Shown here one piece after another: positions 23,922 to 26,900 of a stretch of DNA of 64,000 bases. The notes below the pieces were generated by a model. The model was given only the letters and a program-made list of their open reading frames with translations, was not told the DNA's origin and did no database searches. Source of the stretch: Escherichia coli. Lineage in GTDB: Bacteria > Pseudomonadota > Gammaproteobacteria > Enterobacterales > Enterobacteriaceae. The DNA lies in the NCBI RefSeq assembly GCF_022846255.1, contig NZ_AP025682.1; one strand, given 5' to 3'. Within the stretch, counting starts at the first letter, position 1. Each line of letters begins with the position of its first letter. Both the position numbers and the translations under genes were made by a program.

Positions 23922-26900
23922 TTAGTCAAACGGCGGTGGGGCCAGCACTTCACGATTACCGTTGTGCCCCTGTTCGCTGACAATCCCCTGCGCTTCCATC
24001 TGTTCGATAATACGCGCTGCACGGTTATAACCAATGCGGAACTGACGCTGTACGCCAGAAATTGATGCTTTGCGTTTTTCAGTGACAAACTGCACCGCCT
24101 GATCGAACAACGGATCCAGTTCTTCAGCGCCATCGAAACCGCCCGCGCCACCTTCGCTTTCACTGTCGGAGGTGATGCCGTCAACATACTGTGGGCGACC
24201 ACGCGCTTTCCAGTCCTGCACCACGGCATGAACTTCCTGATCGCGAACAAAAGCACCATGAACACGTACCGGCAACGTGGAGTTCGGCCCAGAGTAAAGC
24301 ATATCCCCCATACCCAGCAGTGATTCCGCGCCAGCCTGATCAAGAATGGTACGTGAGTCAATCTTACTGGATACGGTAAAGGCGATACGGGTCGGAATAT
24401 TCGCTTTAATCAGACCAGTAATAACATCAACCGATGGACGTTGAGTTGCCAGTACGAGGTGGATACCCGCGGCACGGGCTTTTTGCGCCAGACGTGCTAT
24501 CAGCTCTTCCACTTTTTTACCTACCGTCATCATCAGGTCGGCAAATTCGTCCACCAACACCACAATGTACGGTTCTTTTTTCAGCACCGGATGCTGGGCA
24601 TCCATACTGTCACCCGGCTTCCAGTACGGGTCTGGAATCGGACGCATCATGCGATCGGCTTCAGCAATTTTTTCGTTATAACCCGCCAGATTACGCACAC
24701 CCAGCGCAGACATCAGTTTATAACGACGCTCCATCTCGTTAACACACCAGCGCAGCGCGTTGGCGGCATCTTTCATATCAGTAACAACTTCCGTTAACAG
24801 ATGCGGAATGCCTTCATAAACCGAAAGCTCCAGCATTTTCGGGTCGATCATGATGAAACGAACATCTTCTGGCTGTGCTTTATAAAGCATGCTCAGGATC
24901 ATCGCGTTCACACCGACAGACTTACCGGAACCGGTAGTCCCCGCAACCAACAAGTGCGGCATTTTCGCCAGATCGGCAACCACCGGCTCACCGGCGATAT
25001 CTTTACCCAGCACCACGGTTAATGGCGACGGATTATCGCGGAATTTGGCGTTATCCAAAACTTCGCGCAGATAAACGGTTTGTCGTTTTTTATTCGGTAA
25101 CTCCAGACCTACATAGGGTTTGCCAGGAATAACTTCAACGACACGCACCGCCACCGTCGAAAGTGAACGGGCAAGGTCACGTGACAAGTTAGAAATACGC
25201 GCCGCTTTTACGCCCGGTGCCAGGTTCAATTCAAAGCGAGTGATAACCGGCCCCGGAGAATAATTGACGACATCGGCTTTAATACGGAAATCAGCCAGAC
25301 GCGCTTCCACCAGACGCGCCATTTGTTCAAGAGCAAAGGTATCTACCGGCTCCACTTCGCTCGGCGGCGGCGTCAACAAATCCAGAGAAGGCAGCGGCGT
25401 CGTCGGTTTATGCAACGGACGGCTGTCGCCATTACGCATCAACAGCGGATGAAGCAGGGTATCCTGCGGCTGTGGCGCAACTGGCTGTTGTGGCTGCTGA
25501 TACTGCGGCTGCGGCGCAACTGGCTGTTGTGGCTGCTGATATTGCGGCTGCGGCGCAACCGGTTGTTGTGGCTGCTGATACTGCGGCTGCGGCGCAACTG
25601 GCTGTTGCGGCTGCTGATATTGCGGCTGTGGTGCAACCGGCTGTTGCGGCTGCTGATATTGCTGCTGCGGTGCAACTGGTTGCTGCGGCTGCTGATACTG
25701 TTGCTGCGGTGCAATCGGTTGTTGCGGCTGCTGTACAGGTTCAACAATTGGCGTAAACAGCGGTTCGTGTGGACCATCATCCAGCAACGCTTTCATTGGC
25801 GAAAATTCAAAATCATCCAGAGTGAACGGATTCGCCCCAGCAGGTTGTTCGCCGGAATAACGTTGTTGTTGAGTTTGAGCAAACTGACGAGCCAGTTCAG
25901 CCTCTGCCGCAGCATCTGCATCTTCTGCGTTCACGGGCACATCATGTTGATACTGTTCGCCATAGCGTTGCTGCTGTGTCTGGGCGAACTGACGTGCCAG
26001 TTCATCCTGCTGCATCGCATCGATTTCATCATCGTTATACTGATCGCCGGAATCGTACTGATTGCGCTGAGCTTCACGGGCTTTTTCTTCTGCCGCACGC
26101 TGTGAGGGCAGCTTAATACCGTAAGACGCCAGTTCACGACGAGTTGGCACGCGGATGCGTTTCGGTCGTGGCAACTGCGGGCCAATCCCCTCTTTGACCT
26201 GCGGACGCGGTCCAGCGCTATTTGCCAGACTGAAGACTGGCGCGGCAACGGTTGCGGCAGCCCCCGTCGCCAGTGTCGCTTTTTTCACGCCAGATGCCAG
26301 AGGGGAAACAGCGGCAGCGGCTTCCACTGGAGGTACTGCTGCAACAGAAGGTGCTTTCAGCGAAGATTTGATCGGTTCTGGTTCTTTAACCGGTTCAGGA
26401 ATCGGTTGATACCAGGCCGCAAGTTGTTCACGTTCACGGGCACGCTTCTCTTCCACTTCTTCAAAATAGTAAAGCGGCGGACGCGCGGGTTTTGTCTCTT
26501 CTACAACGGGTTCAGGCTCCACAACAGGGTGCTGTTCAACGGGTTGCGGCTGTTGGTACAACGGCTCCTGAGCGGCTGGCTGCTGATAAGTTAGCTCAGT
26601 CTGGTATGTAGACTGTGGAGCAAAAGTGGATTGCTGCTCTTCGGCTTGCCAGGCGTTACCTGCCACCGGTTGTTCTGGCGCAGGGGCGTAATACGGCTGT
26701 TGCGCAGGCTGTTGCGGCGCAGTTACGTAATGCGGTTGCTGAACAGGTTGTTCAGCTGCAGGCGCATAATACGGCTGCTGTGGCTGTACAGGTTGTTGCA
26801 GCGGCTCATTATATTGCACTGCAGGCTGCGCATATTGTGGCTGCTGTGGGTAACCTTCCGGTGCAGGAGCAATAACCGGTTCTCCCGTTTGCGGCCCCGG

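Follow-up and report, generated by a model that had tools for sequence, protein, structure and literature searches.

FtsK of the Escherichia coli strain studied here is longer than its K-12 counterpart, and a tandem repeat with a unit of 39 bp lies in its linker. The original prediction, derived from the sequence alone, regarded this repeat as expanded and hypervariable, and as a possible site of assembly collapse or of strain typing. This raises the question of what the repeat contributes to the length of FtsK, whether its copy number is unusual or even correct, and what a variable number of units means for the protein. The ftsK locus is described within a stretch of 64,000 nucleotides (the window), with the K-12 gene as the point of reference.

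Architecture of FtsK and of its repeats

According to the ORF list, lrp, ftsK, lolA, and rarA lie on the minus strand of the window, and this gene context recurs in the K-12 annotation and in 14 other genomes. The TTG start codon is common to ftsK of the window and of K-12. As ftsK of K-12 MG1655 consists of 3990 nt or 1329 aa, both protein lengths given in the original prediction (1356 and 1329 aa) agree. The protein of the window is an FtsK/SpoIIIE DNA translocase of the E. coli type, with the 4-TM, alpha, motor, and gamma domains in this order (Table 1), and no Pfam domain was detected across residues 192-866. It aligns with K-12 FtsK from end to end, interrupted by three indels only; outside these indels, pairwise alignment shows 13 amino-acid substitutions.

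Table 1. Features of the ftsK region. Positions refer to the window and residues to the FtsK protein encoded there.
Feature	Position (nt)	Strand	FtsK residues	Remarks
ftsK CDS	23922..27992	-		1356 aa, TTG start (ORF list)
FtsK_4TM, Pfam PF13491			20-191	above curated cut-off
Extra Glu codon in acidic tract	27321..27323	-	224	tract of 15 residues vs 14 in K-12
Second, more degenerate 39-bp repeat	26665..26780	-		3 units, spacing 39/39, 71-82% identity (repeat search)
Flagged array, 7 tandem 39-bp units	25464..25736	-	753-843	TRF, unit dissection, in-silico PCR
Array unit 1	25698-25736	-
Array unit 7	25464-25502	-
FtsK_alpha, Pfam PF17854	25092..25394	-	867-967	above curated cut-off, E = 1.1e-29
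FtsK_SpoIIIE P-loop motor, Pfam PF01580			975-1188	above curated cut-off
FtsK_gamma (KOPS-reading), Pfam PF09397			1291-1351	above curated cut-off
CVN001 forward primer site, AACCGGCTGGGGCGAATCC	25828..25846	-		1 mismatch; sequence from PMC8143711 Table 1
CVN001 reverse primer site, GGCGGCGGTGTCAGCAAATC	25363..25382	+		2 mismatches
Antisense 260-aa ORF through the array	25323..26105	+		judged spurious

The flagged array is the best-scoring short-period repeat that Tandem Repeats Finder (TRF) reports in the window (25464-25733, period 39, 6.9 copies, 90% matches, 0% indels, score 386). Dissection along the reading frame yields exactly seven units of 39 bp, i.e. 13 codons each, so that the repeat is in frame and the predicted number of about seven is made exact. 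The predicted span of 25462-25745 lies in the right place but is a few bases too wide at each end. The array is situated in the FtsK linker, as had been proposed, between the 4-TM anchor and the alpha domain, and 24 residues separate its end from the latter. Proline and glutamine together make up 77% of its residues. Five of the seven peptide units share one sequence and the other two are further single variants; the commonest unit is a cyclic permutation of the one given in the original prediction. At a lag of 39 bases, the identity within the array is 0.89, whereas 2000 shuffled versions of the array reach 0.39 at most, and the runner-up among 39-periodic segments of the window, which is the second ftsK repeat, scores 0.45.

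Pairwise comparison of the window units gives 77 synonymous vs 22 non-synonymous codon differences, and all strains taken together contain 41 distinct DNA units and 11 peptide units. Conserved peptide units in spite of synonymous divergence could reflect selection on the motif itself, not on the length of the spacer alone.

The 27 residues by which FtsK of the window exceeds that of K-12 are distributed over three sites: 13 residues in the array (seven units vs six in K-12), 13 in the second repeat, and one glutamate in the acidic tract. The second repeat lies within ftsK about 1 kb upstream of the array. It was missed by TRF and detected via the protein alignment and a separate repeat search; the unit missing in K-12 appears in the alignment as a gap opposite window residues 415-427 (about 26712-26750). 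For the acidic tract, TRF reports a weak periodicity of 6-9 nt at 27312-27356. The two 39-bp families resemble each other weakly, with 21-22 of 39 bases alike as compared with a mean of about 16.5 in shuffles that ignore codon structure.

The same three low-complexity sites account for all length variation among 15 FtsK proteins (the window and 14 fetched genomes), the other 1182 residues being constant in length. Per protein, there are 14 or 15 residues in the acidic tract, 49-81 in the upstream repeat, and 13-143 in the flagged array. FtsK of strain TCM3e1 also consists of 1356 aa and reaches this length with eight array units and one upstream unit fewer. Copy number is thus poorly predicted by protein length alone.

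An open frame of 260 codons runs through the array on the plus strand, and the repeat might be taken to belong to a gene on that strand. This reading has next to no probability. The ORF was rejected as a gene since its product is a Leu/Arg/Trp-rich, low-complexity mirror of the repeat without a Pfam match and since it is nested wholly inside the frame of the conserved, essential ftsK on the opposite strand; a stop-free antisense frame is, moreover, expected from codons rich in CAG, CCG, and CAA. Elsewhere in the window, four ORFs at 36.7-41.5 kb form a fimbrial operon according to Pfam, and PADLOC returned no match for these four ORFs.

Identity with CVN001 and copy number among E. coli genomes

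The generic MLVA scheme for E. coli includes the locus CVN001, which has a 39-bp unit, an offset of 250 bp, and the primers AACCGGCTGGGGCGAATCC and GGCGGCGGTGTCAGCAAATC (PMC8143711). Each primer has a single site in the window, and the two sites converge around the array, where about zero would be expected by chance; in ftsK of K-12, both sites match without mismatch. The in-silico amplicon of the window extends from 25363 to 25846 and measures 484 bp. With the allele formula (PS-250)/39 quoted in PMC8143711, (484-250)/39 = 6.00 corresponds to allele 6, and the K-12 amplicon of 445 bp corresponds to allele 5.00. The published MLVA allele number thus equals the number of 13-residue units minus one. 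Integer CVN001 alleles are obtained for 11 of the 15 sequences; the other four loci (L002, L007, L009, and L010) give 5.38, 4.38, 0, and 3, and an extra partial unit of 15 bp is present in L002 and L007. Judging by in-silico PCR, the flagged repeat is CVN001, a typing marker that is already known, and the predicted variability among strains and use for typing are those of an established locus. A literature search found no paper naming ftsK as the site of CVN001. The scheme is reportedly that of Lindstedt et al. 2007 (GECM-7/GECM-10).

Megablast of the whole ftsK gene against the complete genomes of E. coli, 5,426 in number, gave spans of 3834, 3990, 4029, 4044, 4068, 4071, 4107, and 4146 bp, the differences in gene length among genomes being steps of 39 bp. 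For the array itself, a centered query of 1001 bp was used and 60 genomes were taken at even steps down the ranking of the 5,426, so that the following numbers are alignment spans from a sample and not a full count. The array has the same length as in the window in 27 of the 60 genomes (45%) and is 39 bp shorter, i.e. of K-12 length, in 21 (35%); it is shorter by 78 bp in two genomes and by 24 bp in four. The six remaining genomes gave unjoined alignment pieces, and five of these, once fetched, were found to carry 8, 8, 11, 8, and 5.38 units. Among all fetched loci, unit counts of 1, 4, 5, 5.38, 6, 6.38, 7, 8, and 11 occur. The extremes are PSJ-14 with one unit (FtsK of 1277 aa) and strain 204446 with 11 units (1407 aa). 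An O157:H7 genome has seven units like the window, and derivatives of K-12 have one common ftsK length.

This allele spectrum of complete genomes is in line with the published CVN001 frequencies, which are 1% for allele 4, 40% for allele 5, 40% for allele 6, 13% for allele 7, and 5% for allele 8 (PMC5217547). In one series, ST131 consists of allele 6 to 100% (PMC5217547), and rare CVN001 variants inside ST131 were described in another (PMC3407997). Because 27 of the 60 sampled complete genomes share its length and 40% of the published series its allele, the window allele (seven units, CVN001 allele 6) is modal in E. coli and represents no notable expansion. Hence, the word "expanded" in the original prediction applies vs K-12 to a single unit, that is, to 13 of the 27 additional residues; the other 14 lie elsewhere in the protein, and the allele itself is the most frequent in E. 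coli. The comparison among strains that had been suggested as a check gives the same copy number as in some reference strains and one unit more than in K-12.

A repeat of this kind may be collapsed or mis-expanded during assembly. The array, with its 273 bp, exceeds typical short reads, and many public partial FtsK proteins begin or stop inside it. Among the partial FtsK proteins returned by the protein search, such a break occurs in at least 14 clusters, some of them with 90-245 members and some on contigs of 468-1177 nt; examples are P0035 (99 members, 468-nt contig), P0112 (90 members), and the Salmonella clusters P0108 (245 members) and P0109 (178 members). In addition, of 53 fragment clusters that come from short contigs and span the array, 10 have just one unit, the minimal form. 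For the window, however, such an artefact is very unlikely. Its seven units are those of strain LR-28, an independently assembled complete genome, base for base, and FDAARGOS_497 matches the 1001-bp stretch across the array at 100% identity. Together with the intact reading frame, these two identities led to the rejection of an artefact, and the allele is, moreover, modal both among complete genomes and by PCR-based MLVA. The predicted site of assembly collapse is thus a valid one in general, but the window shows no indication of a collapse, since every unit of its array recurs identically in LR-28. As regards the shortest form, exact matches to the one-unit junction occur in no fewer than 11 complete genomes, which stem from unrelated hosts and sources; PSJ-14 and AMSCJX03 are examples of complete genomes with this allele. 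Assembly collapse may account for some of the one-unit entries in databases.

Orthologous repeats in Salmonella and other Enterobacterales

The ftsK gene of Salmonella contains a 39-bp VNTR as well, known as SENTR2 or STTR7 (PMC2430564, PMC8627665). It occupies the orthologous position after ...GPHEPLFTP..., has the same period of 39 bp, and its in-frame variation is likewise used for MLVA. Salmonella FtsK fragments exhibit the same peptide unit and the same flanking motifs as in E. coli. Differences between STTR7/SENTR2 and the E. coli array concern flanking residues (VMPESTP... vs IVEPV...) and the copy number, which is higher in S. Enteritidis (9.3). An indel in ftsK of S. Enteritidis corresponds to residues 757-784 (PMC6137255). 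With shared position, period, and unit, the E. coli array is orthologous to STTR7/SENTR2. Together with the identity to CVN001, this means that the repeat is real and correctly located, but ordinary, its use as a typing marker being established in both E. coli and Salmonella.

Further away, a spacer that is rich in P, Q, and A but not repetitive takes the position of the array in Klebsiella, Cronobacter, Pantoea, Pectobacterium, and Edwardsiella. This comparison across genera (query residues 700-970) covers FtsK fragments of less than 480 aa and hence describes the local anatomy, not the full-length proteins. A similar arrangement is found in other coding VNTRs such as SENTR1 in tolA (45 bp), where an in-frame, low-complexity spacer connects a membrane anchor with a functional domain and serves as an MLVA marker (PMC2430564 Table 1). 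The TolA repeat differs from the ftsK array in gene, unit, and composition, so that the likeness is an analogy only.

Linker length and its tolerance

The linker domain of K-12 FtsK (FtsKL) was reportedly the subject of work by Bigot et al. 2004 and by Dubarry et al. 2010. FtsK of the window is the same protein with the same domain architecture, in which the array makes up the final portion of the linker, rich in Pro and Gln, just before the motor; compared with K-12 FtsKL, it has one array unit, one upstream-repeat unit, and one glutamate more. The FtsK linker is described as unstructured and Pro/Gln-rich, with length and composition that differ between species (PMC5357621). According to the same review, it is required for full dimer resolution and for stabilisation of the divisome, and parts of it are reported to contact FtsZ, FtsQ, FtsL, and FtsI (PMC5357621). 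An AF2 model of residues 641-1000, built from an alignment of 18 sequences, shows the array as coil with a pLDDT of 34-38; the model is poor throughout (mean pLDDT 44.5, with the alpha domain also low), and it therefore supports disorder weakly. Exchange of ftsK repeat alleles in S. Enteritidis produced no phenotype in the one assay that was used (PMC6137255). A literature search on the disordered or PQ-rich FtsK linker returned nothing bearing on the length of the array.

Very probably, the array is a spacer that tolerates changes in length and is likely disordered, the copy number of which drifts by out-of-register recombination or slippage, and which is the same locus as CVN001 and orthologous to STTR7/SENTR2. 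Units would recombine out of register or slip during replication, thereby altering the copy number, and every such alteration would preserve the reading frame because one unit equals 13 codons. As the segment would act only within a flexible tether that connects the membrane/divisome anchor to the motor, anything from one to at least 11 units would be tolerated. Owing to this tolerance, alleles would then drift and mark lineages. Slippage or unequal crossover as the mechanism, the role as a disordered tether, and the near-neutrality of length are what we infer, whereas the identity, structure, and polymorphism of the locus and the chimeric units of a close relative are shown by the data. Strain TCM3e1, which is 99.24% identical to the window outside the repeats, provides a possible example of such an exchange: two of its eight units are chimeras of window units and fit the products that out-of-register exchange would be expected to yield.

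Alternatively, the 13-residue unit might be a functional module, e.g. a polyproline-II ligand of the divisome or of another partner, with a copy number that sets valency or reach and is under lineage-specific selection. Such a module would agree with a peptide that is conserved while its codons diverge (in DNA vs peptide units as well as in codon differences), with the retention of the same unit in Salmonella, with the 13-residue period of the second linker repeat, and with the divisome contacts reported for parts of the linker (PMC5357621). It is nonetheless unlikely, as natural genomes contain anything from 1 to 11 units, other Enterobacterales have a degenerate P/Q/A spacer in place of the repeat, the swap of alleles in Salmonella had no effect in one assay, and proline and glutamine codons make most third-position changes synonymous whatever the selection. 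It is quite unlikely that the two arrays with a 13-residue period are more than neutral spacers and jointly determine how far the tether between divisome anchor and pump reaches, or its valency, with combinations in different lineages tuning the coupling of septum closure to chromosome clearance. A hint in this direction comes from two close relatives that both arrive at 1356 aa via opposite changes (91 + 68 vs 104 + 55 residues).

Tandem repeats in coding regions with many alleles within a species, as is the case here, also bring to mind contingency loci, and the array might switch the expression or function of FtsK at high frequency by phase variation. The in-frame unit effectively refutes this possibility, which is as good as excluded: as the length of the unit is divisible by three, switching by frameshift is impossible, and all 15 alleles are in frame. 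Alleles are also stable within clones, as seen for ST131 (100% allele 6 in one series, rare variants in another) and for the single length among K-12 derivatives, and FtsK is cytoplasmic and its gene described as essential.

Taken as a length-tolerant spacer, the array has small practical value and opens no new question of its own. Its description does tie CVN001, a routine typing marker, to an exact gene and protein context. It also attributes the length differences of FtsK between strains to two separate 39-bp repeats and one codon, so that length alone is not readable as copy number, and it alerts annotators to a site where assemblies from short reads are often broken and may be collapsed. 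For the biology of E. coli, the range of 1 to 11 units tolerated directly before the FtsK motor amounts to a natural experiment on linker length.

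Additional repeats of the FtsK linker

The linker of FtsK, which connects the N-terminal 4-TM domain with the FtsK alpha domain, harbors a second in-frame VNTR with a period of 39 bp in addition to the E. coli MLVA locus CVN001. Among the ftsK genes of 15 strains (the window and 14 fetched genomes), the corresponding linker stretch comprises 49, 55, 68, or 81 residues, and its length varies independently of CVN001. The repeat units of the two loci share weak DNA similarity. In the literature consulted, this second VNTR was not found named as a typing locus.

Furthermore, the linker contains a duplicated motif that begins with D or A and occurs in two copies at a distance of 35 residues. 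Within the modelled linker segment, helices are predicted with moderate confidence (pLDDT 60-80) only at these two copies, and the core residues of the motif are invariant in fragments from Salmonella, Klebsiella, Pectobacterium, and Edwardsiella. The motif is a candidate conserved interaction element of the FtsK linker.

Coordinates of the features described in the window
Feature	Position	Strand	Details
Second in-frame 39-bp VNTR of ftsK	26665-26780	(-)	FtsK residues about 400-443; 13-residue units
Duplicated linker motif of FtsK	about 25855-26030	(-)	FtsK residues about 654-713
CRISPR array, one of two	35103-36152		28-nt repeat GTTCACTGCCGTACAGGCAGCTTAGAAA
Chaperone-usher fimbrial operon	36705-41513	(-)	four genes; Pfam
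cas genes	about 41893-50244	(-)	ORF sizes and Pfam
CRISPR array, other of two	50470-51277		28-nt repeat GTTCACTGCCGTACAGGCAGCTTAGAAA

Public database entries at the CVN001 array

Three clusters of public FtsK fragments, retrieved by protein search with residues 700-970, probably reflect mis-assembly or mis-calling of the CVN001 array. P0063 (151 members) lacks one residue within the array and shows a frameshifted end (...DTLLHPAVDA) directly past it, and P0018 and P0077, whose contigs measure at most about 1 kb, carry the array in its one-unit form.

Type I-F CRISPR-Cas locus and lineage of the window

The window holds a complete type I-F CRISPR-Cas locus. Its two arrays consist of 18 and 14 repeats, and the ORFs between them fit cas1, cas2-3, csy1-3, and cas6f in size, with Cas_Csy4 and the I-F Cas2-3 fusion both confirmed by Pfam. 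A perfect 61-bp × 2.5 tandem stretch detected by TRF (35283-35433) corresponds to adjacent duplicated spacers. The fimbrial operon lies inside the locus, flanked by cas6f and the downstream CRISPR array. Besides a fimbrial subunit, it encodes a chaperone and an usher, which are PapD-like and PapC-like, respectively, as well as a fimbrial or adhesin-like protein of 344 aa. PADLOC returned no matches for these four ORFs.

None of the complete E. coli RefSeq genomes searched matches the whole window closely; for positions 1-25000, the top match reaches 99.1%. The ftsK gene (23922-27992) is 99.7% identical to that of strain LR-28 and about 97% identical to that of most strains, with only 82 records at an identity of at least 99%. 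These comparisons suggest that the source lineage is uncommon or mosaic.
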